Positions 1 to 16,428 of a stretch of 64,000 nt of DNA are shown here, piece after piece; positions within the stretch are counted from its first letter, which is position 1, and every line of letters begins with the position of its first letter. Both the position numbers and the translations under genes were made by a program. Source of the stretch: Patescibacteria group bacterium (GTDB lineage Bacteria; Patescibacteriota; Saccharimonadia; Saccharimonadales; CAYUUR01). The DNA is taken from assembly GCA_052034685.1 (NCBI GenBank), contig JBPOIH010000007.1, positions 13,249 to 77,248 of the forward strand. The letters are read 5' to 3'. Below the pieces are notes generated by a model. That model worked only from the letters and a program-made list of their open reading frames with translations. It was not told the DNA's origin and did not search any database.

Positions 1-499
1 TAGAATGTGAATACACACGCGCTGTACTCCTTCGGTAACTACTGTGCGGTTCGGACCCAACGAGTGCCAGTAGTTTCCAGTGCCCACGACCGGCGATATC
101 TTGAGCTGACGAACGAGCATTTGCCATGATAGTATCCTCAATCGTTTCATGTGTTGCCACTGACTGAAGAAGCCCATTGACGGTGCTGAAGTAGCGGCGC
201 CGTTCACTGATACTGGCCATCATTTTTCTTCCGAGCATGAGTCCAACTATTGCGCCAGTGACGAATGCAGCTCCAGATTGTGACATCAACGTCGGGTCGT
301 CTTCATGTTTTTCTGATGCCCCACTCAATGTTACACGTAAATAATATGGCACCTTCTGCCAGTTGTAATTTGCATACTCAATACTACCCTTTTTTGCAAC
401 AGCATCAATAATCGACTCGCAAGCATTGTCAAATTCAAACTGAACGTTATCTAATGCTCGTTGAGTTGGCATTGTTCCAAGAATTTCTAAATCAGACAT
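1..499 (-). CDS. Hypothetical protein, 3-prime truncated by the window edge (ATG at 499, open to position 1). It sits where rplC would normally follow rpsJ.
   Basis: I translated the minus-strand frame by hand: [25 protein letters not shown]...[15 protein letters not shown]... It has no stop codon from 499 to 1. It is not an L3-like sequence. It lies 55 nt downstream of the rpsJ stop. Confidence 0.45.
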
Positions 500-553
500 G
501 GGTAGTATGTTATTTATGTTCGGTGTATGTAGTTACTTCAGCGTAACTGACAA

Positions 554-895
554 CTACATCTTTATTTCGGCATCACAGCCGGCAGGAAGCGAAAGATTCA
601 TTAGTGAATCAATTGTCTTTGGTGTTGGCTCTAACACATCGATAATACGTTTGTGTACACGCATTTCAAACTGTTCACGGCCTTTTTTATAAACGTGCGG
701 GCTCTTAACAACAGTGTAAGTTGTTTTCTTGGTTGGAAGTGGGATTGGCCCAGCAATTGTTGCACCGGTACGGATTGCTGTATCAACAATCTGCTTAGCA
801 GACTGATCGATTACTTTGTGATCATATGCCTTAAGACGGATACGGATCTTTTGCTTACCGTCTTTCTTTTCTAGTGGTTTTTTGGCGTCAGCCAT
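554..895 (-). CDS. rpsJ: 30S ribosomal protein S10
   Basis: The 113-aa ORF has an S10-like core, RIRLKAYDH...AGPIPLPT...[27 protein letters not shown]. An AAAGGAG Shine-Dalgarno sits 6 nt upstream. Confidence 0.9.
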
Positions 896-1106
896 GATGT
901 GCTCCTTTCATGAGCACTAGGGCGGAGGGGGAAGGATGAAGGGTGGAGGTTTTCCTCATTCCCTTTTGCCTTAGCCCTTAGCCCTAGTCTGTGATGTAAC
1001 ATCTCCGTAAGTGCTATAGAGAGCCCTGTACGACGACTTTTAGTCATCACGATTAGTTTGTAATACAATCCTACAACAATAATCAATTTTTGTGAAGGAT
1101 CTTCTG

Positions 1107-1541
1107 TTAAGTGATACTAGATGCAGCCTCTAATGTGCGCTGCCTTTCACTTCGCTCAATGCCATAGCGTTTATCAAGTGTATGTCGCGGCCCGCCTTGA
1201 AAAGCATTATATGCCGATAGTGCGTAGTTAAGTGCGCGCTTACCAACTAAGTGACACCTGTCATATCTGCCGTAGTAGTATCCACTGGTATCGATATTGA
1301 AGTATCTCTCTTGTCGCAGCGTTTCAACTTCATGAAGTGTTACACCTTCATCATCTGCGAGCTGCCTGAATATGTAGCCACTAAGTTCATATGCAACATC
1401 ATTGGCGAGGGCTATTTCACCGTTGTCGATAAGTTCTGTAGCTTTCTGAATAGTTTCAGCTAAACCACATTCTTGACTAGCAATCTCCTCAATACTAGTT
1501 CGTATGAGTCCCGCCTGGCTATCACGCGAATAATAGGTCAT
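1107..1541 (-). CDS. Hypothetical protein (144 aa), lineage-specific, in the tuf-rpsJ spacer
   Basis: ORF MTYYSRDSQAGLIRTSIEEIASQECGLAE...YYYGRYDRCHLVGKRALNYALSAYNAF... I recognise no motif in it. It lies between the tuf terminator and the S10 leader. Confidence 0.45.
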   Translation of the reverse strand: MTYYSRDSQAGLIRTSIEEIASQECGLAETIQKATELIDNGEIALANDVAYELSGYIFRQLADDEGVTLHEVETLRQERYFNIDTSGYYYGRYDRCHLVGKRALNYALSAYNAFQGGPRHTLDKRYGIERSERQRTLEAASSIT

Positions 1542-1683
1542 GTTTTCTCCTTAAGATCGTCTGAAATATATACAAAAGTAGCGATAAACGCAAGCACAAG
1601 CATAATCAGAACACTTTGCGTGGTGGTTTTAGATAGAGCTCGGGTTTTTCAAGCGTGTTATGCAGTGTTAGTAACCGATAATG

Positions 1684-1718
1684 AAAAAGGAGCTGTACTT
1701 AGCGTATAGCTCCTTTTT
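1684..1718 (-). terminator. Rho-independent terminator downstream of tuf; the hairpin has A and T runs on both sides, so it could act in both directions
   Basis: aaaaaggagct-gtacttagcgtat-agctccttttt forms an 11-bp stem including A:T pairs. On the minus strand the stem is followed by TTTTT. It lies 50 nt after the tuf stop. Confidence 0.65.
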
Positions 1719-1767
1719 CTGTCGCAGGTCTTATCCTGCAGTGTGCCCTGGTAAAGGGGCGAGATCG

Positions 1768-2949
1768 CTACTTGTTGATCTTGGTAACAACACCAGCACC
1801 TACGGTACGGCCACCTTCGCGGATAGCGAAGCGTAGACCCTGTTCCATAGCGATTGGTGCAAGCAGTTTAACCTTGAAGGTTACTGTGTCGCCCGGCATG
1901 ACCATTTCTTTGTCAGCTGGGAGTTCAACCTCACCAGTTACGTCCGTAGTACGGAAGTAGAACTGTGGCTTGTAGCCCTTGAAGAATGGTGTGTGACGAC
2001 CGCCTTCATCCTTAGTGAGGATATAGACTTCTGCATCAAACTCAGTGTGAGGAGTGATTGAACCAGGCTTAGCCAAAACTTGGCCGCGCTCGATGTCATC
2101 ACGCTCAATACCACGAAGCAAGATACCAGCGTTATCACCAGCTTGTCCTTGATCAAGAGATTTCTTGAACATTTCGATGCCAGTTACAACTGATTTCTTG
2201 GTGTCGCGGACACCAGTAATTTCAACTTCGTCGTTAACTTTAACGATACCTTGTTCAATACGGCCAGTAGCAACAGTGCCACGACCTTTGATTGAGAAGA
2301 CGTCTTCGATAGCCATCATGAAAGGCTTGTCGAGGTCGCGCTTAGGCTCTTCAACATAGTCATCCATAGCTTTGATCAGTTCCATGATTGCATCTTCGTT
2401 AGCTGCATCGCCTTCGAGTGCCTTGGTAGCTGAACCCTTGATGATTGGAGCATCTTCGTCAAAACCGTTCTTAGCGAGCAGTTCACGAATGTCCATTTCA
2501 ACTAGTTCGATGAGTTCTGGATCAGCAAGATCCATCTTGTTCATGAATACAAGAATCTTAGGTACGCCCACTTGCTTAGCAAGAAGTACGTGTTCACGAG
2601 TCTGAGGCAACGGACCGTCGTTAGCGGCAACCACGAGGATAGCACCATCGATCTGCGCAGCACCGGTAATCATGTTCTTCACATAGTCGGCGTGACCTGG
2701 CATGTCAACGTGCGCGTAGTGGCGCTTTTCTGATTCATATTCTTGGTGAGAAGTCGCAATGGTAATACCACGTGCTTTCTCTTCTGGGGCGTTGTCAATC
2801 TGATCATACGCAATTGGTTTGTTAACGTCGCTCGGTAGCTTTTTAGCTAGTACAGCGGTGATAGCAGCCGTAAGTGTCGTTTTACCGTGGTCAACGTGAC
2901 CCATAGTACCTACGTTTACATGCGGCTTGCTTCGGTCAAAATCTGCCAT
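1768..2949 (-). CDS. tuf: Elongation factor Tu
   Basis: The 393-aa ORF has the G1 motif [15 protein letters not shown], plus DMPGHADYV and NKMD. Confidence 0.97.
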
Positions 2950-3100
2950 GTAGATTTGTCTCCTATTATTAGTTCATTATTTTATCGCGGTCCATGTCAC
3001 ATCAATAGCAACGCCCTCTCGCGAGTACATCAATAATCTTACCTGTTAGTCGGTCTTTTGTAAAGAGTTTTAACGTCAGTTTAGGAAGTGCACAAGTATA

Positions 3101-3511
3101 TTATTGAGCTGCCAATATTTGCACACAAAACCGTTCTTCTAGTTCTTGTTGTGCAGTCATGGTTCTATCAAGAGCTAGACGCTCATAGTCATTCACCATG
3201 AATTGAGGCATTTTTACAGTAGGAATAGATTCGTTGTCTGATGATACAGGTAAACCAAGCCAGATATACTGATTACTTACAGCAGTACTACAGCGTCGAA
3301 GCGTATCAGCACATTCTCGATCTGGAATATAGTGAGCAGCTTCAATCTGTCTTTTGACCAGTTGTCTACTTAGCCACAAACCCATTGTGAACGTTGACTG
3401 TTCCCGATCGTAGCTCGTATATGCAAAGTAAATAACTGCATGACCACTGTAGCCTGGCTCTATGCTACGGAATCGTTCGGCGCTAATCTCGGTAAACTTG
3501 TCGCGAAGCAT
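3101..3511 (-). CDS. Hypothetical protein (136 aa) between fusA and tuf
   Basis: ORF MLRDKFTEISAERFRSIEPGYSGHAVIYFAYTSYDREQ... Its ATG at 3511 lies only 5 nt after the fusA TAG (3517..3519), which is tight operon spacing. Confidence 0.5.
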   Translation of the reverse strand: MLRDKFTEISAERFRSIEPGYSGHAVIYFAYTSYDREQSTFTMGLWLSRQLVKRQIEAAHYIPDRECADTLRRCSTAVSNQYIWLGLPVSSDNESIPTVKMPQFMVNDYERLALDRTMTAQQELEERFCVQILAAQ

Positions 3512-3516
3512 GCTTA

Positions 3517-5604
3517 CTACTTGGCGTTTTTGGCAATGATAGCTTCTGTGACGTTTGGTGGAACGTCTTCGTAGTGGTCAAGCTCCATACTTGAACTCGC
3601 ACGACCTTGCGTCATTGAACGCAGGTTGGTGGTGTAACCAAACATTTCACCAAGTGGTACAAAGGCAGTGATTTCTTTAACGCCGCTGGAAAGGTCTTCC
3701 ATAGACTCGATGCGTCCACGCTTACTGTTGAGGTCACCAATGACATCGCCCATGAACTCTTCAGGTGTTACGGCAACAACCTTCATGATAGGTTCAAGGA
3801 GTACTGGCTTAGCAACCTTCACACCAGCTTGCAGTGCCATAGAGCCAGCAATCTTAAAGGCCATTTCGTTTGAGTCAACGTCGTGGTAGCTTCCGTCGTA
3901 CAGTTCTGCCTTGATATCAACAACAGGGTATCCGGCGATAACACCGTTAGACATTGCCTCGATGATACCTTGCTCAACTGGCTTGATGTATTCACTTGGG
4001 ACAACTCCACCCTTGATAGAGTTAATGAACTCAAAGCCTTTACCAGCTTCGTTCTGAGACAGGCGAAGCCAAACGTGACCGTACTGACCACGTCCACCAG
4101 ATTGCTTGACGAACTTACCTTCAATTTCAACAGCGTCTTTGCGGATAGTTTCACGGTAGGCAACCTGTGGTTGACCAATGTTAGCTTCGACGTTAAATTC
4201 GCGCTTCATACGGTCAACGAGAATTTCGAGGTGAAGCTCACCCATACCAGAGATAATTGTCTGGCCTGTTTCTTCGTCAACACGAACACGGAAAGTTGGA
4301 TCTTCCTCTGCAAGACGCTGCAATGCTAGGCTCATCTTCTCTTGGTCAGCCTTTGTCTTTGGTTCGATTGCAATGCTGACAGGCGGTTCAGGGAATGTAA
4401 TGCTCTCAAGCACAATAGGATCATTGATTTCACAAAGTGTGTTACCAGTTGTTGTACCCTTAAGGCCAACGATGGCAGCGATATCACCAGCACCGATTTC
4501 AGTAACGTCTTCACGCTTGTCAGCTTGCAGACGTACAATACGGCCGATGCGTTCTTTGCTACCCGTAGAACTGTTCAGAATATATGACCCAGCTACGAGC
4601 TTACCTGAGTAAACACGGAAGTAAGCCAGCTTACCAACAAAAGGATCAGTTGTGATCTTAAAGGCCAGCGCTGCAAAAGGATCAGATTCGCTTGGCTTTC
4701 GCTCAATTTCATCACCAGTCTTTGGGTGCGTGCCCCAGGTAGAACCAACGTCAAGTGGGCTTGGCAGGTAGTCATTAACCATATCGAGTACTTTTTCTAC
4801 GATAACGCCACGGCCATCGCCCCCAGTTACGGCAAAGAACTTACCTGATAGCACAGCGGTACGGATAGCTTGCTTGATTTCATCAGTTGACAGACCTTCT
4901 TCACCGACTTCAAAGAACTTCTCCATCATGGCTTCGTCTTCTGCGACGGCATTTTCTATCAGCAGGCTGCGGTATTTCTTGGCCTTGTCGAGCATATCTT
5001 CTGGGATTTCACCCTCAATCAGCTCTTTATCGGTGAAGTCTTTGTAGGTGTATGCCTTCATTTCGACGAGGTCAATTACACCGTTGATGGCTTGTTCAAA
5101 ACCAATTGGCAAATGCACAGGGAATGCGTGTTTGCTGAGGCGGTTATGGATAGAGTCGAGAGACTTGTAGAAGTCACCACCCGTTTGGTTGATTTTGTTG
5201 ATGAAACAAATACGTGGGACTTTGTACTTGTCAGCTTGGCGCCAGACAGTTTCAGATTGTGATTCAACACCCATCTTACCGTCAAAGACCACACACGCAC
5301 CATCAAGCACACGTAGTGAACGCTCAACTTCAACGGTGAAGTCGATGTGACCAGGAGTATCGATAATGTTAATCTGGTTACCCTTCCAGTAACAAGTCAC
5401 AGAAGCAGCCACGATAGTAATACCGCGTTCGCGTTCTTGTGCCATCCAGTCGGTTGTTGTCTCACCTTCGTGCACTGCACCGATCTTGTGGTTCAAACCA
5501 GTACGGTAGAGGATACCTTCTGTAGTGGTAGTTTTACCGGCATCAATGTGCGCGATAATACCGAGGTTCCTAATATCTTTCATTGGTGTTGTTTTTGCCG
5601 CCAT
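3517..5604 (-). CDS. fusA: Elongation factor G
   Basis: The 695-aa ORF has AHIDAGKTTTTE and DTPGHIDF, the full EF-G domain set. An AGAGGG Shine-Dalgarno lies upstream. Confidence 0.97.
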   Translation of the reverse strand: MAAKTTPMKDIRNLGIIAHIDAGKTTTTEGILYRTGLNHKIGAVHEGETTTDWMAQERERGITIVAASVTCYWKGNQINIIDTPGHIDFTVEVERSLRVLDGACVVFDGKMGVESQSETVWRQADKYKVPRICFINKINQTGGDFYKSLDSIHNRLSKHAFPVHLPIGFEQAINGVIDLVEMKAYTYKDFTDKELIEGEIPEDMLDKAKKYRSLLIENAVAEDEAMMEKFFEVGEEGLSTDEIKQAIRTAVLSGKFFAVTGGDGRGVIVEKVLDMVNDYLPSPLDVGSTWGTHPKTGDEIERKPSESDPFAALAFKITTDPFVGKLAYFRVYSGKLVAGSYILNSSTGSKERIGRIVRLQADKREDVTEIGAGDIAAIVGLKGTTTGNTLCEINDPIVLESITFPEPPVSIAIEPKTKADQEKMSLALQRLAEEDPTFRVRVDEETGQTIISGMGELHLEILVDRMKREFNVEANIGQPQVAYRETIRKDAVEIEGKFVKQSGGRGQYGHVWLRLSQNEAGKGFEFINSIKGGVVPSEYIKPVEQGIIEAMSNGVIAGYPVVDIKAELYDGSYHDVDSNEMAFKIAGSMALQAGVKVAKPVLLEPIMKVVAVTPEEFMGDVIGDLNSKRGRIESMEDLSSGVKEITAFVPLGEMFGYTTNLRSMTQGRASSSMELDHYEDVPPNVTEAIIAKNAK

Positions 5605-5607
5605 TCT

Positions 5608-5898
5608 CTATCCCTCTTTCTGTTCGTTCGTAATGCTCTTGTATTGTGTTGCGAGTGTTTCTAATCGTTGTTGAGTACCTTCAGCACCATCTGCCATTTG
5701 GCTTCTGTAGGCTAGGCTGTATGCAAGGGTGTCCCAGACGGCCTCTTCGGCTGCGAAAACATCATTAGTAGACAGGTCGAGTGCTGAATCAAGATCAACA
5801 CGTACACTGTCCCTAACGACAGACTTGGCCAGCGCCATATACAACTCTGAAGGCGAATCAACGGATTCTTTCTCAAAGAGTTCTTCAGCAAGCTGCAT
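5608..5898 (-). CDS. Hypothetical acidic protein (about 96 aa from the Met at 5898; the track ORF extends to 6066 as 152 aa)
   Basis: MQLAEELFEKESVDSPSELYMALAKSVVRDSVRVDLDSALDL... Its TAG stop at 5608..5610 is 3 nt from the fusA ATG. I chose the internal start so it does not overlap the 99-aa ORF upstream. Confidence 0.4.
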   Translation of the reverse strand: MQLAEELFEKESVDSPSELYMALAKSVVRDSVRVDLDSALDLSTNDVFAAEEAVWDTLAYSLAYRSQMADGAEGTQQRLETLATQYKSITNEQKEG

Positions 5899-5932
5899 CC
5901 ATCTGGTTTTGTTTATTGCAATCTCAGCCACT

Positions 5933-6232
5933 CTATTGTGCCACACCGCTTTCTGCATCTTGTGGCACGCCAGCGTATGGTGACGCTTCGTACAAGAAGT
6001 CAACATTTGCAACTGGTCCGTAGTCTCTGAAGACTTCGATAGCGTCATCTCGGACATCGACGTCATCTACCACCCAAGCACGGACAGTGTCAAAGCCTTC
6101 TACCTGGAATGGATTCTGTGGTCGATACCTTAGTGCATCGACTACAAACAGCTCACCACAAGCAGCTTCATTGAACATTCCTTGGTCGCCGATACTGAGG
6201 AGATCTGCTGATACTTTTGTTTCAAACGCCAT
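5933..6232 (-). CDS. Hypothetical acidic protein (99 aa) immediately downstream of rpsG
   Basis: MAFETKVSADLLSIGDQGMFNEAACGELFVVDALRYRPQNPF... Its ATG at 6232 is 2 nt after the rpsG TAA, giving TAAtcATG. Confidence 0.5.
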   Translation of the reverse strand: MAFETKVSADLLSIGDQGMFNEAACGELFVVDALRYRPQNPFQVEGFDTVRAWVVDDVDVRDDAIEVFRDYGPVANVDFLYEASPYAGVPQDAESGVAQ

Positions 6233-6234
6233 GA

Positions 6235-6711
6235 TTATCTCGCAAAGTGAGCAAAGGCTCGGTTAGCTTCAGCCATCTTGTGTGTGTCTTCACGCTTCTT
6301 AACGGCTGTTCCTGTGTTGTTGTAGGCGTCCATAAGCTCTGCAGCAATGCGGTCTTCCATGCTCATACCTTTTTTGGCGCGAGCAGCAGCAACAAACCAC
6401 ATCATGGTGAGGTGATTCTGGCGTTGGCCCTTAACTTCAAAAGGAATCTGGTAGTTCGCACCACCAACGCGGCGAGAACGAGTCTCAACCTGCGGCTGAA
6501 TGTTCTTCATAGCTTGTTCAAACACATCAAGTGGGTTCTGCACCTTGAGCTTATCGGCAGCTTTTTGCATACCACCATAGACAAGTCGTTCAGCAAGCTG
6601 CTTCTTACCGTTAAGCATGACGCGGTTAATAAGACGCTGGACCTGTACAGAGTTGTACACGCGGTCAGCTGGGATATCTCGCACGAGTGATTTGGTTACT
6701 TTTCTAGGCAT
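6235..6711 (-). CDS. rpsG: 30S ribosomal protein S7
   Basis: The S7 core starts at the conserved MPRKVTK. A GGAAGGAG Shine-Dalgarno lies 7 nt upstream. The track ORF extends 14 codons further (MNYQ...); I rejected that extension. Confidence 0.92.
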   Translation of the reverse strand: MPRKVTKSLVRDIPADRVYNSVQVQRLINRVMLNGKKQLAERLVYGGMQKAADKLKVQNPLDVFEQAMKNIQPQVETRSRRVGGANYQIPFEVKGQRQNHLTMMWFVAAARAKKGMSMEDRIAAELMDAYNNTGTAVKKREDTHKMAEANRAFAHFAR

Positions 6712-6955
6712 TTTGGACTCCTTCCGCAACAATCGCGCATTCTGGTAGTTCATCTACTCCCGACTCTCGGTATGCTTCGAAAATACGATTACATGTACTA
6801 AATACATTTATGGCATCTTTGCCAGTAGTTGAGACTGTTGGGTTAATGTTAGGGCACTGCCAGTAGCATTCCCCAGAGTCTCTTTGCTCAGCAGTAACAG
6901 GGCCTCCTGCGACAACAAAGCTTTCGCTAAATAATGGACCTTCGCTGAAACTCAT
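6704..6955 (-). CDS. Hypothetical Cys-containing small protein (83 aa) filling the entire rpsL-rpsG spacer
   Basis: [39 protein letters not shown]...STCNRIFEAY...PECAIV has 4 Cys. Its ATG overlaps the rpsL TAA as TAATG. Its TAG stop overlaps the rpsG ATG as ATGCCTAG. Confidence 0.4.
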   Translation of the reverse strand: MSFSEGPLFSESFVVAGGPVTAEQRDSGECYWQCPNINPTVSTTGKDAINVFSTCNRIFEAYRESGVDELPECAIVAEGVQNA

Positions 6956-7368
6956 TATTTGCTCTCTTTCTTGGCACCGTACTTGCTACGTCCCTGTTTG
7001 CGGTTTTCGACACCTTGCAGGTCAAGTGCACCTCGCACAATGTGATAACGAACACCAGGAAGATCCTTAACACGTCCACCACGGATCAGAACAACAGCGT
7101 GTTCCTGTAGGTTGTGGCCTTCGCCAGGGATATATGCCCAAACTTCATGACCGTTGTTCAAACGTACACGAGCGACTTTACGAAGCGCAGAGTTTGGCTT
7201 CTTTGGAGTTTTCGTGGTGACCTTAACACAGACACCACGCTTCAGCGGTGCTGCTTTTTCATAGTTTCTAGTTTTGAGGTTGTTAACAACCTTGTGTAGG
7301 GCTGGAGATTTTGACTTCTCCTTCTTGATGCTGCGCGGTTTACGCACGAGCTGATTGATTGTTGGCAT
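6955..7368 (-). CDS. rpsL: 30S ribosomal protein S12
   Basis: 137 aa, [12 protein letters not shown]...[11 protein letters not shown]...[30 protein letters not shown]. Confidence 0.96.
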
Positions 7369-7483
7369 AGTTCTCCTTGTCTACTGCAGCATGTGATCGC
7401 CAAAATCACACGGCTCAGACATTAGTTTATCGTTGTAAATAATATCAGGTTTGTACGAATCGTACAAGTCTTTGGCTCGGGTT

Positions 7484-7514
7484 GGTTGACGTGCAATGGT
7501 TTAGCACGTCAACC
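7484..7514 (-). repeat. Strong 11-bp-stem hairpin 13 nt after the rpoC stop, with no U-tract
   Basis: GGTTGACGTGC-aatggttta-GCACGTCAACC. It could be a processing or stability element, or a partial attenuator, between rpoC and rpsL. Confidence 0.4.
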
Positions 7515-7527
7515 CTGGCCCTGGAAC

Positions 7528-10500
7528 TTAGGCTTCGGTGGTAACTTTTGAAGCGACTTTAGGATCGTCAAGCTCAGGACGATAGCCGGTACCAACAGGT
7601 ATGCGACGTCCCAAGATAACGTTTTCCTTCAAGCCATACAGGTGGTCAACCTTACCACTGGTTGCTGCGGCAATCAGCACACGAGTAGTGTCTTGGAAGC
7701 TCGCAGCACTCAAGAACGACTCAGTTGATAGTGACGACTTAGTGATACCAAGTAGCAACTGTACAAACTTAGCTGGAGCTTTACCGTCAGCTACAAGCCG
7801 CTCGTTTTCTTCAATGACAGCGATTTTACTGACGATGTCGCCAGTTACAAATTCACTATCACCAGATTCCTCAATCTGCACGCGGCCAAACATCTGACGC
7901 ACGATGATTTCAAGGTGCTTATCTGCAATGTTCTGACCTTGTGAGGCAAAGATACGCAAGATTTCGTTCATGATGTAACGCTGCGTTACTTCAACACCTT
8001 GTAGGCGCATCAGTTCGTGCAGGTTAATCGAACCATTGGTGAGTCTTTGACCAGCAACAACTTCGTCACCGTCTTTGACAACCATTTGCTTGAATCCTGG
8101 GATCTCATAGCGGGCTGTTGGCTGATCTGAAGGCGTAATGACAATCTTGTCCTTGCGCACTGCAATCTTACCAGCAACAGGTACTACCAGCGGGCTAGAA
8201 GCGTTCTGGCCAGTAGCAACTACGTCACCTACGGATACTTCAGCACCGTCTTCAATATCAGCAGTTCTTCCCTTAAGAGCGAGCTCTACTTTTTCCTTGC
8301 TGTTAGAGGTTACTTCTACTACATACTGATTGCCATCTTCCCAGAGTCGGACTGTTCCAGCCATTTCACTCAAGTAAGCCTGACCCTTTGGAGTACGTAC
8401 TTCAAAGATTTCTTCAACACGTGGCAAACCTTGCGTAATGTCGTCAGCCGCAGCAGAACCACCAGAGTGGAAGGTTCGAAGCGTCAACTGCGTACCAGGT
8501 TCACCGATACTTTGTGCGGCAATCACACCAATTGGGTGACGGTTTGCAACGACTTCGCCAGTAGCAGGGTCGAGACCGTATGACTTACGTGATACGCCTC
8601 GTACGCTAGTACAGCTCAGCACGCTCATGATACGAACGCCATCAAGCGATTCATCGGCCTCAATGGCGGCAGCTTTTTCACGAGTGATAGCGTCGCCTTT
8701 TTTGACAATCTTGCCAATGTTTTCTGCAGCATAACGACCTTCTAGTCGTGATGAATAGCTCACACCAATTTCTTTGGCGTCAGAGCGGTAGATGGCAAAA
8801 CCATGGTCTTCACAGTCTTCTTCAAGTGTAAAGACATCTTGTGCGACATCAACCAAACGACGAGTCAGATAGCCTGAGTCAGCTGTCTTGAGGGCGGTGT
8901 CGATCATACCCTTACGAGCACCACGGGTGGCCGTAAAGTACTCGAGCGGAGAAAAGCCATACTTATAGTTTGACTTAACTGGTAGCTCAATCGTGCGACC
9001 GGTAGCATCTGCAACTGGTCCAAGCATACCGACAGCTGTCGTTACCTGACCGAGGTTACCACGAGCACCAGATACTACAGCGATAGACATAGAACTGTCT
9101 TCGTTAGCAAACTGTGCAGCCAAGGTTTCCTGAACAGTCGCATATACCTTACCCCAAGTTTCAACAACGAGGCGGTAACGTTCTTCTTCAGTGATGAAAC
9201 CTTGATCGTACTGATCGCTGATTTCTGCACCTTTGCGTTCACCTTCGGCCAAGATCTCTTTAAGACCCTTAATGTCGCTGAAGTCACTCATACCCATAGA
9301 CAAACCTGAAACAGTCGCATAGGTGAATCCGAGGTCCTTCAGATCATCAGCGATCTCTGCAGTCTTGTCTTGTCCGTAGTTTTCGTACACCTGCGACATG
9401 ACTTGCTGCAAGCGTTTTTTGGTCATAGCGTCGTCTTGGAATGGGAAGTCTTCTGGGAAGATTTCATTAAAGAGTACGCGACCAAGCGTTGTCTCACGAG
9501 TAACACCACGGAATGGAATCCGTACATGTGTCTGTAAGCTGAGAGATCCGCCATCAAGCGCCATAAGCGCTTCGTCAAGGCCTGAGAAGCCACGAATTTT
9601 CTTGTCTTCACTGGCTGCGCGGTCGTATGTTAGATAGTAACAGCCGAGCACAATATCTTGCTCGATATGGAGGATTGGCGAACCGTCGGCAGGTTTGAGT
9701 AGGTTCTTGTTGCTTGCCATGATGTTCTTAGCTTCATCTTGTGCAGCATCGCTCAAAGGCAAGTGCACGGCCATCTGGTCACCATCAAAGTCAGCGTTGA
9801 AACCTTTACATACGAGTGGGTGTAGCTGAATTGCTTTACCTTCAATCAACACTGGTTGGAAAGCCTGGATCGAAAGACGGTGCAATGATGGAGCACGGTT
9901 CAATAGTACGTATTTGCCCTGGATGACTTTATCAAGTGCATCCCAGACAGGTGTTTCGCCGGCTTCGATCATGCGTGTTGCAGAACGAATGTTGTGAGCG
10001 TGCTCGTTTTCGATGAGTTCACCAATGACAAATGGCTTGAATAGCTCAAGAGCCATCATCTTAGGGAGACCACACTGGCTGATCTTGAGTTCTGGTCCAG
10101 CAACAATCACTGAACGACCAGAATAATCAACGCGCTTACCAAGCAAGTTCTGACGGAAACGTCCTTGCTTACCCTTAAGCATGTCACTCAAAGACTTCAG
10201 ACGACGTCGTTGGCCAGTTGCCGCTACAGCACGTCCTGAACGAGCGTTACTGTTGTCGATCAAAGCATCTACTGCTTCTTGTAACATACGCTGTTCGTTA
10301 CGGCAGATAACTTCTGGAGCGTTAAGGTCCATAAGTTTCTTCAAACGGTTGTTACGGTTAATGACACGTCGGTAAAGATCGTTAAGGTCACTGGTAGCAA
10401 ATCGTCCACCGGTCAACTGCACCATTGGTCGCAGGTCTGGAGGGATCACAGGCAGAACGCTTACACAAAGACTGCTTGGCTTAATACCTGCGCGGTCCAT

Positions 10501-11346
10501 GCTTTCAAGCAAACGAAGTCGCTTCATCAGCTTCTTCTTGCGTTGTCCCTTTGCTTCTGCCGCCTCTTCTTCAAGCGACTTGATAAGTGCTCCAAGGTCA
10601 ACTTCTGTCAGTAGATCACGTAGTGCAGAACCTCCCATACCTACTTCAATGATGTCTTGGTATTCGTCGGGTAGAGCACGGTAGTCGTTCTCGCTGATAA
10701 GGGCCATCTTTACGAGTCCAACAAGCTGAGCCTTAGAAAGGTCAAATGCCTCATTTAGCTCATCAAGTTCTTTGTTCTGAGCTTCAGCCAAGGCCTTAAC
10801 GTCAGAACCTTCTTCTTTTGCTTGTGCCTCGTATCGTAGTTTGATTGCTTCTTTAGCAGCTTCAAACTCGGCTTCTTTGTCTTTGAGGAACTTGTCACGC
10901 TTATCTGTGTCAACAGACTTAATGATGTAACTCGCGAAGTAGACAACTCGCTCCAGGCTCTTAACTGTTGCACCAAGTACGAGACCCATTGCTGATGGTG
11001 TACCACGAAGGAACCAAATGTGTGCAACTGGTGTAGCAAGGCTAATATGACCCATACGTTCACGTCGCACAATGCTCTTGGTTACAAGTTCGCCTTTTTT
11101 GTCGACAGCAGCTTCGCGTGAGCGAACGCCCTTGTACTTAGCATCATGTGGGTTAATGTCTTTGACCGGACCAAAGATCCTCTCACAGAATAGGCCGTCG
11201 CGTTCTGGTTTCTGTGTTCGATAATTGATTGTTTCTGGCTTGGTTACTTCACCGTGTGACCAGTCAAGAATATCTCCTGAGCTGGCAACGGCTAGGCGTA
11301 CCGCGTCAAAATCTGCAATATCTGTTCCGCTTGAGTAACGACGCAT
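7528..11346 (-). CDS. rpoC: DNA-directed RNA polymerase subunit beta-prime
   Basis: 1272 aa with [34 protein letters not shown] and [10 protein letters not shown]. Its ATG overlaps the rpoB stop as TAATG. It has a lineage-specific insertion near residues 110-300. Confidence 0.97.
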
Positions 11347-15112: not shown

Positions 15113-15778
15113 TCAACTCATTGAGATCTGATGTAAGCCACGACCTATCTCTTTGTCGCCAACAATGCCTAAAATTTCAATAAACAAGCGATTCATATTG
15201 GGTGCTTCATAAGCGGTTTGTTCAATAGTAAATTGGCCCAGCCTGAGTGTCTCTGGATCGCTGCGTTGTTCAAATCTGGTTTGGTCAACCAGCTCTTCAA
15301 GGAATTCTTCACCCTTCCAAACATGTATGCTTACTGGTTGATCATTGCACTCACGTAAAGCCAAAGCAGCCATAACATAGGTCATAGCTTGATCGGGTGC
15401 AATCAACTCTCTTATAACTCGGTAACGGTGTGGCAAGAGTTCAGAAACATGGAGTTTAGCTGCGCGCTCTATGCTTCCAATTGGCCAGGGCCGCTTACTC
15501 GATACATTGTCGGCCGTAGTGCAGATCGCATCAAGCCCAGATGCACTGTCATGAACGACAACGCTTCGGTGTGCGTAACGTTGCCGAGAACGGTTGAGTT
15601 CAGTACCAACGGTACGGTTTGGATACGCCCAGTTAAGCGGTTCTGTATTTGCAACCGCTGCACCGCGTTGCACTCCAAGCATTTGAGCATAATAACCAAG
15701 ACGTAATTCTTGCACCTCAGGCCAGTGTTGCTGCATGAGCTCCGCTGGCGTTGTTTCGGCATAAGCTGAGTGTTCCAT
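15113..15778 (-). CDS. Hypothetical protein (221 aa) between clpP and rpoB
   Basis: ORF MEHSAYAETTPAELMQQHWPEVQELRLGYYAQML... I recognise no motif in it. It occupies the position where rplKAJL usually precedes rpoB. Confidence 0.5.
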   Translation of the reverse strand: MEHSAYAETTPAELMQQHWPEVQELRLGYYAQMLGVQRGAAVANTEPLNWAYPNRTVGTELNRSRQRYAHRSVVVHDSASGLDAICTTADNVSSKRPWPIGSIERAAKLHVSELLPHRYRVIRELIAPDQAMTYVMAALALRECNDQPVSIHVWKGEEFLEELVDQTRFEQRSDPETLRLGQFTIEQTAYEAPNMNRLFIEILGIVGDKEIGRGLHQISMS

Positions 15779-15819: not shown

Positions 15820-16428
15820 TTACTTTGGCGGGTTGTCTATGATCTTATCGACAATGCCGTATTTGAGTGACTCAGTAGCAGTCATCCACTTATCGCGTTC
15901 CATGTCTTCGTGAATTTTAGCTACTTTTTGACCAGTGTTTTTAGCCATAATCTCTTCAAGTAACTTCTTAACGCGCAGACTTTCACGCAGGTCAATTTCT
16001 TGATCTGTTACTTTTCCACGAGTACCACTGGAAGGCTGATGAACCATCACGGATGCATTTGGCAAGATCATGCGCTTACCTTTGGTGCCGCTGCTTAGTA
16101 TAAATGCTGCTGCACTCGCCTGAATGCCAATGCCGACAGTTTGGATATCACTCTTAACAAAGTTCATAGTGTCGTAGATCGCCAATGCATCATAGACGCT
16201 ACCGCCAGGACTGTTGATATACAGGTATATGTCTTTGCCAGGGTTTTCATTATCAAGAAAGAGCAATTGTGCCACGATAAGGTTAGCAGTATGCGGATTA
16301 ACATCTTCACCCATAAAGATAATACGGTCACGCAACAAACGAGAATATATATCGTAGGCGCGCTCCATGCGACCCTCTGATTCAATTACAGTTGGTATAA
16401 GTGCTGCGTGTGGCGTTTGAGTAGTCAT
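15820..16428 (-). CDS. clpP: ATP-dependent Clp protease proteolytic subunit
   Basis: 202 aa. The catalytic triad is alignable to E. coli ClpP: Ser in GIQASAAAF, His in MVHQPS, Asp in YGIVDKII. Confidence 0.95.

Follow-up and report, generated by a model that had tools for sequence, protein, structure and literature searches.

Hotspots of horizontal gene transfer that are free of mobile elements (Oliveira et al. 2017, PMC5635113) hold different accessory genes in one interval between orthologous core genes. They turn over rapidly, lack integrases and repeats, show signs of recombination in the flanking core genes, and are typical of naturally transformable bacteria. Here we compare with them a stretch of 64,000 nucleotides (nt), called the window below, from a Patescibacteria group bacterium (GenBank assembly GCA_052034685.1, contig JBPOIH010000007.1, positions 13,249 to 77,248). 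The window comes from Candidatus Saccharibacteria (TM7), and its EF-Tu falls within a 196-member cluster named elongation factor Tu of Candidatus Saccharibacteria. Six small open reading frames (ORFs), labelled A to F, occupy its junctions between rpsL, rpsG, fusA, tuf, rpsJ and rplC. The locus is an accessory-gene hotspot of the type flanked by core genes, but miniaturised, repeated at consecutive junctions and lying partly inside an essential operon. A limited literature search found no prior description of it.

Varied slot content and the lack of integrases, transposases and flanking repeats recur here. Recombination in flanking genes is suggested by one mosaic tract in a single pair, the window and its relative L084 (90–95% identity against 72–85%). 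The differences concern operons and size. New genes rarely enter operons in the described hotspots, whereas A–D lie inside the rpsL-rpsG-fusA unit with start/stop precision; E and F fit the rule of operon edges and A–D do not. Moreover, at least five adjacent micro-slots of one or two genes each are found here, compared with one large hotspot there.

Ribosomal-protein operons are known to carry non-ribosomal passengers, namely secY, adk, map and infA in the spc operon and rpoA in the alpha operon. As is proposed for the present locus, genes of other function are transcribed together with those for ribosomal proteins and profit from the same strong expression. However, those passengers are ancient, conserved and of known function, whereas A–F are restricted to a strain or a few species and are replaceable. 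Orphan genes offer a further parallel: A, B, C and E have no detectable homologues beyond a narrow clade, the proteins are short, codon adaptation is weaker, and the structure of C is predicted with low confidence. Unlike such orphans, the genes here are clustered at consecutive junctions of one core string, A and C are under measured purifying selection, and D has a family with a fixed genomic position.

We consider it probable that the rpsL-rpsG-fusA-tuf-rpsJ-rplC string is a chain of accessory-gene slots, in which small real genes are turned over as units and mostly serve strain-specific, non-ribosomal roles. Each slot would be bounded by a conserved translation gene or by its promoter or terminator, and would hold one or two small genes: A; B and C; D; E; and F, with a gene G, respectively.

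Layout of the filled junctions

The gene order on the minus strand, which also carries the promoter-like sites and the terminator given below, is rpoB, rpoC, rpsL, A, rpsG, B, C, fusA, D, tuf, E, rpsJ and F. The spacers rpsL|rpsG, rpsG|fusA, fusA|tuf and tuf|rpsJ measure 243, 630, 567 and 872 nt, respectively, exactly the lengths that an earlier reading of the letters alone (the sequence-only reading) had called unusually long.

The first slot is anchored by rpsL (ribosomal protein S12; 6955..7368; Pfam Ribosom_S12_S23, E = 8e-38) and rpsG (ribosomal protein S7; 6235..6711; Pfam Ribosomal_S7, E = 7e-54). rpsG starts at 6711 with MPRKV, as it does in relatives. ORF A (6704..6955; 83 amino acids (aa), isoelectric point (pI) 4.1, 4 Cys) fills this junction exactly, as its start shares TAATG with the rpsL stop and its end overlaps the rpsG start by 8 nt. 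The rpsG|fusA junction holds ORF B (5933..6232; 99 aa, pI 4.1), which starts 2 nt past the rpsG stop, and ORF C (5608..5931; 107 aa, pI 4.3), whose GTG start lies 1 nt past the stop of B and whose stop lies 3 nt ahead of the next anchor, fusA (EF-G; 3517..5604, called as an ORF). ORF D (3101..3511; 136 aa, pI 5.4) follows the fusA stop after 5 nt. Behind D lie 151 nt with a conserved promoter-like site found by scanning (TTTACA-17-TAAGAT, 3036..3064) and the tuf leader (2950-3035), and then the anchor tuf (EF-Tu; 1768..2949, assigned by cluster membership). A–D are thus positioned as if they were translationally coupled within the rpsL-rpsG-fusA unit.

The coordinates first proposed for A, B, D and E were kept, but C does not start at 5898 or 6066. 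Its true start is the GTG at 5931, as positions 5932-6066 are coding in the frame of B and not in that of C under the codon model given below. The orthologues of C start ATGGCTGAG at the homologous codon.

tuf is followed by an intrinsic terminator (1683..1719), a hairpin with 16-nt arms and a U-run that folds at −39 kcal/mol (z = −5.5). ORF E (1107..1541; 144 aa, pI 5.1) is a stand-alone gene with an AAGGAG ribosome-binding site. The 211 nt between E and the anchor rpsJ (ribosomal protein S10; 554..895; Pfam Ribosomal_S10, E = 2e-35) contain a promoter-like site (TTCACA-17-TAGGAT, 1068-1096) and a conserved leader (990-1079), together 990..1096; the leader is 88% identical to that of L084 over 90 nt. 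With the tuf terminator ahead of it and the rpsJ promoter behind it, E is not operon-coupled. The operon coupling proposed earlier therefore applies to A–D, with gaps of 1–5 nt or overlaps, and not to E, which lies behind the tuf terminator with signals of its own. No RNA family of Rfam was matched in window 1-8000. A separate tuf promoter taken from the TM7x strain drives reporter genes in Saccharibacteria, an rpsJ promoter from this strain is used as a strong promoter, and a tuf terminator from another Saccharibacterium is also a working expression part (PMC10633639). The near-identical strain L110 (ENA ERZ4210451) lacks ~90 nt of the rpsJ 5' leader (window 897-990), with E and rpsJ otherwise unchanged. 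The window's strain is present in samples SRR34217542, SRR16481186 and SRR16481187.

ORF F starts 54 nt past the rpsJ stop and is truncated at the window edge (1..499; fragment pI 6.5). On contig L108, which is 100% identical to window 1-1833, the full-length F has 231 aa and one hydrophobic segment, and is followed by the gene G for a 91-aa membrane protein and by rplC ~1.3 kb downstream. F had been thought to stand in the place of rplC, which is not so, since rplC comes after F and G. From rplC onwards (rplC, rplD, rplW, rplB, rpsS, rplV and rpsC in L108) the junctions are tight. Therefore the filled-junction pattern, first claimed for every junction, holds from rpsL to rplC and then stops. 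G is a conserved membrane protein of 89–91 aa just upstream of rplC (L108:about 2078-2353, just past window position 1; L084:15530-15799). Its TATACT box ends 7 nt before the ATG, and G may be translated from a leaderless mRNA.

Turnover of the slots among relatives

Relatives were gathered by exact look-ups and a species-level genome scan, from independent assemblies, and their loci carry L numbers. In L090 and L092 (~92% DNA identity), whose contigs cover rpsL|rpsG and rpsG|fusA, the first slot holds A and the second only C. L096–L099 (~85–97% in 150-nt windows), with contigs that reach up to fusA|tuf, have no gene in the first slot, only C in the second and an unrelated 70-aa ORF in the third. 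In L084–L089 (~80–90%) the first slot is again empty and the second holds only C; an unrelated 236-aa ORF lies between fusA and tuf, no gene lies between tuf and rpsJ, and an unrelated 155-aa ORF and then a G homologue lie between rpsJ and rplC. The expectation behind a proposed synteny check, that close relatives would keep these frames, was contradicted: L090 and L092 lack B, L096 and L084 lack both A and B, and L084 lacks E.

Near relatives differ in the inserts by clean units the size of a gene. A is an exact insertion or deletion (indel) of 249 nt (83 codons) relative to L084, in which rpsL and rpsG overlap directly, stop on start. Its slot runs from the rpsL stop (TAATG) to the rpsG start codon, with AATG at both ends of the 249-nt unit. 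B is a gene-sized indel between the rpsG stop and the first base of the C start codon; in L090/L092, L084-L089 and L096-L099, from which it is missing, C starts 5–7 nt past rpsG. No strain other than that of the window was seen to carry B, the 90% cluster of B has a single member, and scans of viral contigs and JGI metagenome contigs gave no relatives. Orthologues of C, 86–93% identical, occupy the same location in three other lineages, which makes four lineages with the window included.

The E slot is bounded by the tuf terminator and the rpsJ promoter. In L084 the slot is empty, with the terminator abutting the rpsJ promoter and leader. Among 5.8 billion clusters E matched only itself, and no relatives were found in viral contigs. 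The F slot extends from the rpsJ stop to the upstream region of G. In L084 the 155-aa ORF takes the place of F, and the next gene G and rplC are homologous to those of the window lineage.

At the species level, A–F gave no tblastn match in 80 loci, including nine (L001-L009) with EF-G 83–89% identical to that of the window, most of which have long junctions of their own. In the seven closest species of the genome scan, same-strand ORFs fill the junctions and are related neither to one another nor to A–F; the junction ORFs of relatives are mostly singletons. At the rate measured for C, orthologues at such a distance should remain recognisable. This comparison suggests replacement, more than divergence, as the main process.

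A further variable slot lies between clpP (15820-16428) and rpoB, where the window has a 221-aa ORF without Pfam match (15113-15778, minus strand). The L096 copy is 82% identical, and in L084 clpP is followed directly by rpoB. Two entries of the relatives need a remark. fusA and tuf of L084 (JGI 3300056999) and rpoB of L085 are split by frameshifts, which are probably assembly errors and not pseudogenes. L007 (CAZHJU010000063.1) is labelled 'uncultured Bordetella sp.', has EF-G 87% and EF-Tu 95% identical to those of the window, and is probably a mis-binned Saccharibacteria contig.

ORF D and its family

Between identical boundaries, the fusA stop and the −35 element of the tuf promoter, the D slot holds D in the window, the unrelated 70-aa ORF in L096 and the unrelated 236-aa ORF in L084. 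The tuf promoter-like block is kept in L084 and L096, directly after their slot genes. The 236-aa ORF (L084:12480-13190) has its own promoter-like site (TTGAAA / TG-n-TATAAT) and a stretch ...IDLDGQGNVLV...VRVVDVG... resembling kinase catalytic motifs, with no Pfam match.

An exhaustive HMMER search of 1.84 billion representative proteins gave seven full-length homologues of D (29–44% identity, phmmer E = 2e-18 to 1e-4). The family (P0006, P0040-P0045, P0048) shares 16 invariant alignment columns: F29, Y31, G44-L45-W46, S48, H60, D64, G86, E123-L124-E125, R127-F128, V130 and I132. Four of the seven homologues were looked up in their genomes (L100, L101, L102 and L105), and every one proved to be located between fusA and tuf. 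The homologues of L100 and L101 share TAATG with the fusA stop, that of L105 begins 5 nt past fusA, and that of L102 is the third gene past fusA, ahead of tuf. Among loci L001-L101, a hidden Markov model of the family matched only L100 and L101. One contig has EF-G 90% and EF-Tu 96% identical to those of the window and a D homologue only 44% identical. D is thus evidence that slot genes can also diverge fast or be exchanged for divergent alleles.

The AlphaFold model of D is confident, with a predicted local distance difference test (pLDDT) of 91.5 and a predicted template modelling score (pTM) of 0.86, and has an alpha/beta fold. No match to this fold was found in PDB or in BFVD (predicted viral structures). 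Pfam gave single chance-level matches only for all eight family members, and neither viral contigs nor, with the D-family sub-alignment, JGI metagenome contigs contained a member.

FusB-type proteins are EF-G-binding protection proteins, and by analogy a small EF-G-tied accessory would explain why the D family stays beside fusA. However, D has no sequence or fold similarity to any solved structure, and FusB-type genes are not known to be coupled to fusA. D is a candidate for a real EF-G link, and the sole one in this locus, because its family lies in the fusA|tuf interval in all four cases. From this conserved position, the family tracks fusA and may act with EF-G.

Function of the slot genes

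A–F matched no Pfam or NCBIfam family at E ≤ 0.1–1 beyond chance level and nothing in PHROGs or PADLOC. tblastn against phage and plasmid collections found no relatives, and the 64-kb window contains no paralogues. The products of A–E are small and acidic, that of F contains a single hydrophobic segment, and G codes for a membrane protein; the earlier statement that most are acidic holds, with pI 4.1, 4.1, 4.3, 5.4 and 5.1 for A–E and 6.5 for the fragment of F. C is predicted to be all-helical, with an AlphaFold pLDDT of 50, and this model was too poor for a structure search. The products are most likely small, mostly acidic soluble proteins in strain-specific roles outside the ribosome core, which would use the constant high expression of their neighbours.

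The sequence-only reading suggested that A–F could be lineage-specific accessories of the ribosome or of translation. In this view they would be co-expressed with S12, S7, EF-G, EF-Tu and S10 because they act on or with them. The coupled placement of A–D beside rpsL, rpsG and fusA agrees with this proposal, as do the purifying selection on A and C and the constant position of the D family, with its two TAATG overlaps and one 5-nt gap at the fusA stop. The small L7Ae-family gene between rpoC and rpsL in Bacillus subtilis is a precedent for a ribosome-related gene in this cluster. Turnover speaks against it. Relatives without A and/or B have near-identical S12 and S7, with 1–3 nonsynonymous differences in L090 and 8.5–9.8 in L084. 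D, E and F are swapped for unrelated genes or nothing, and each of the seven closest species has different junction ORFs. No ribosomal or translation family was matched, and E stands outside the operon, behind a terminator. The genes proved real and lineage-restricted, but they are not a consistent set, their frames are absent in relatives, and a link to translation stays possible for D only. As an account of A–F together, the accessory role is improbable.

A second explanation, to which we also give a low probability, is that the slot genes serve fast-evolving conflict functions and are sited for constant high expression. They would be immunity- or antitoxin-like, anti-phage or anti-defence genes, or shields of S12, EF-G and EF-Tu against antibiotics of the actinobacterial host. 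Saccharibacteria grow on Actinobacteria (PMC10633639), the products are small and acidic, their presence varies between strains, and the contrast between D (44%) and its neighbours EF-G (90%) and EF-Tu (96%) points to rapid turnover or divergence. Nevertheless, the idea is circumstantial. The defence, phage and protein-family collections named above gave no match, phage or plasmid relatives were not found, and D has no structural match. No toxin partner was seen either, and B–C, the sole adjacent pair, is not obligate, as C stands alone in three lineages.

Coding character and selection

Each spacer was shuffled 2000 times with its dinucleotides preserved, and a same-strand ORF of at least the observed length was reached 0, 1, 0 and 3 times for the 243-, 630-, 567- and 872-nt spacers, respectively. 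A codon log-likelihood (LLR) model was trained on 29 long window genes, and six frames were scored. The annotated frame ranked first of six for all six ORFs. Per-codon LLR was 0.10–0.24 for A–F (A 0.10, B 0.24, C 0.225, E 0.17, F 0.13) and 0.11–0.37 for the training genes, and spurious antisense ORFs had a negative score in their own frame. In the seven closest species, 15 of 15 junction ORFs were coding-like, with the in-frame LLR best. By these measures A–F are genuine coding-like genes, and the earlier view that ORFs nearly fill the spacers beyond chance was borne out.

For A, the window and L090 differ at 12.5 synonymous and 7.5 nonsynonymous sites, giving a ratio of nonsynonymous to synonymous rates (dN/dS) of 0.15 with a significant synonymous excess (p = 3e-4, binomial test). 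C gave dN/dS of 0.09–0.16 across three lineages (p = 3e-8, binomial test). The values for rpsL, rpsG and the 3' end of rpoC were 0.01–0.04. The dN/dS check suggested earlier thus came out in favour of purifying selection, and A and C are, by these codon comparisons, under such selection at 0.09–0.16. Together with the absence of the frames in relatives, this indicates that the slot genes are functional but dispensable and replaceable. Single-nucleotide polymorphisms (SNPs) at the strain level were uninformative on selection in A or E, as six of six SNPs of L083 lie within rpsL and L110 differs only outside E. The L083 SNPs are synonymous and clustered in 67 nt of the rpsL 3' part (7018-7084); A and the rpsG start are identical to those of the window, and the cluster is a small mosaic patch at the slot edge.

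These values bear on a further explanation, that the ORFs are translated spacers whose frames are kept open for read-through, so that polarity is avoided and coupling is kept, while the proteins are functionless. The gaps are indeed filled from stop to start, and the codon scores of 0.10–0.24 are lower than the 0.25–0.38 of neighbouring genes. A, D, E and F have a lower GC content at the third position of codons, no relatives were found for B and E, the model of C has low confidence, and the Cys content of A and of relatives' ORFs (4–5%) is near the level of random sequence. The significant synonymous excess in A and C is not expected of functionless proteins, and neither are the conserved family and confident fold of D. 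E is outside the operon and therefore needs no read-through, and relatives tolerate zero-length junctions, so that a spacer is not needed. We regard translated spacers as quite improbable.

The Cys content was followed separately. Cys makes up 4–5% of A and several relatives' ORFs, compared with 0.5% of the long proteins of the window. Small acidic junction ORFs with 4–5 Cys are L102:1109-1354 (rpoC|rpsL), L102:2365-2697, L105:285-605, L008:9645-9977, L005:5313-5606, L001:9609-9986 and A itself (6704-6955); two of these begin M..CPxTGxxC. A family uniting A with the Cys-rich acidic junction ORFs (CxnC(P)...Cx15-19C) was considered, but the best pairwise phmmer E values were 0.26–1.4, which is not significant. 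Random codons would give ~3% Cys, and the junction ORFs are near this expectation. For both reasons the idea of a single Cys-rich family was dropped.

Mosaic tract and possible route of turnover

Identity between the window and L084 is 72–79% over most of the 3' region of rpoC (an ORF at 7528-11346), ~84–85% in rpsL and 90–92% at the 3' end of rpsG. It reaches 94–95% over C and the first ~0.6 kb of fusA, stays at least 90% up to ~1 kb, and then drops abruptly to 76–80%. The mosaic tract covers window positions of about 4550-6300 (rpsG 3' end, C and ~1 kb of fusA 5'). The synonymous divergence (dS) of the same pair is 0.17 for C and 0.78–0.98 for rpsG and rpsL. Such an identity jump with discordant dS is what an exchange of C and the DNA around it would leave behind if homologous recombination used the conserved genes as arms, and it points to recent recombination of this tract between lineages that had diverged.

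Natural competence is described for Saccharibacteria, which recombine linear DNA through ~1-kb arms (PMC10633639). In the slot-chain explanation, DNA taken up by competent cells would recombine through the conserved flanking genes as homology arms, and slots would turn over by small indels and allelic replacement. A–D would be expressed as passengers of the rpsL-rpsG-fusA transcript by termination-reinitiation coupling, and E, possibly also F, would use start signals of its own. An insert between rpsL, rpsG and fusA would survive only if ribosomes stay on the message and reach the next essential gene. Selection for continued translation of the downstream ribosomal genes would explain why the gaps are filled so exactly.

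Several points count against this explanation. The recombination argument comes from one clear mosaic pair, the window and L084, compared by identity and dS. The indels have microhomology at their edges, for example AATG, and this is compatible with insertion and deletion alike. B, E and F have no relatives, and therefore the case for them is made by ORF length and codon usage. The constant place of D beside fusA indicates that not every slot gene is a transient passenger. Lastly, the homologue searches for C and E need shared 5-residue words, so that remote relatives could escape, and the checks on A, B and F consisted of exact cluster look-ups and local or collection scans.

Cassettes moved by a dedicated system (integron-like attC/integrase, transposon or homing element) would account for clean gene-sized inserts with edges at start and stop codons, but are very improbable, as a repeat search of window 1-7600 found no direct or inverted repeats flanking any insert and no attC-like inverted repeats, the only strong hairpin there is the tuf terminator, domain scans of the slots and their surroundings turned up no integrase, transposase or endonuclease, and Rfam gave no match.

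Junctions in other Saccharibacteria and in the candidate phyla radiation

In 35 Saccharibacteria-like loci, the median spacers were 185 nt for rpsG|fusA, 597 nt for fusA|tuf and 194 nt for tuf|rpsJ. Medians in 19 named loci outside the candidate phyla radiation (CPR) were 60 and 34 nt for rpsG|fusA and fusA|tuf, respectively (tuf|rpsJ was covered by 4 loci only), in line with the earlier remark that insertion within this conserved operon is unusual. The largest spacers of Saccharibacteria-like loci were 2.7–5.6 kb, and other CPR loci were similar. Between rpsL and rpsG the gap is normally shut (median 4 nt), and an insert such as A is therefore of the rarest kind. Elsewhere in Saccharibacteria, the larger inserts consist of ordinary genes, coding for ApbE, a CHASE histidine kinase, a class-V aminotransferase, alpha-amylase, a nucleotidyl transferase, NUDIX, APH and an SPFH-domain protein.

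A 14-member family of ~80–140 aa, unrelated to D, lies between fusA and tuf in diverse CPR other than Saccharibacteria (L020, L022, L023, L026, L032, L034, L035, L038, L039, L048, L051, L055, L059 and L076; for example, L035:3897-4319 and L023:12088-12336). The two members checked (L035 and L023) had no Pfam match, and the family may be a widely conserved partner gene of the fusA|tuf interval.

Significance

In Saccharibacteria and other CPR, genes are rapidly gained and lost within a gene string that is usually deemed rigid. Part of these newcomers sit inside an operon, contrary to the general rule that operon interiors are avoided. The slots yield a handful of proteins whose expression is probably among the strongest in the cell. 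D, a member of this set, combines a confident and apparently new fold with a fixed place beside EF-G.

A bolder view, which we hold to be unlikely though still worth stating, is that, in naturally competent CPR with reduced genomes, new proteins are raised at these gene junctions as in a nursery and are exchanged there. DNA landing between such genes would obtain guaranteed transcription and coupled translation, and could spread across species through near-universal homology arms. Some passengers, such as D, would become fixed translation partners, possibly protecting EF-G, EF-Tu or S12 from translation inhibitors of the actinobacterial hosts.

The variable spacing of rpsJ–rplC and of the str genes matters for methods that assume contiguous marker genes. 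The natural tolerance of the junctions suggests that they may be ready-made sites for foreign-gene expression in engineerable Saccharibacteria.

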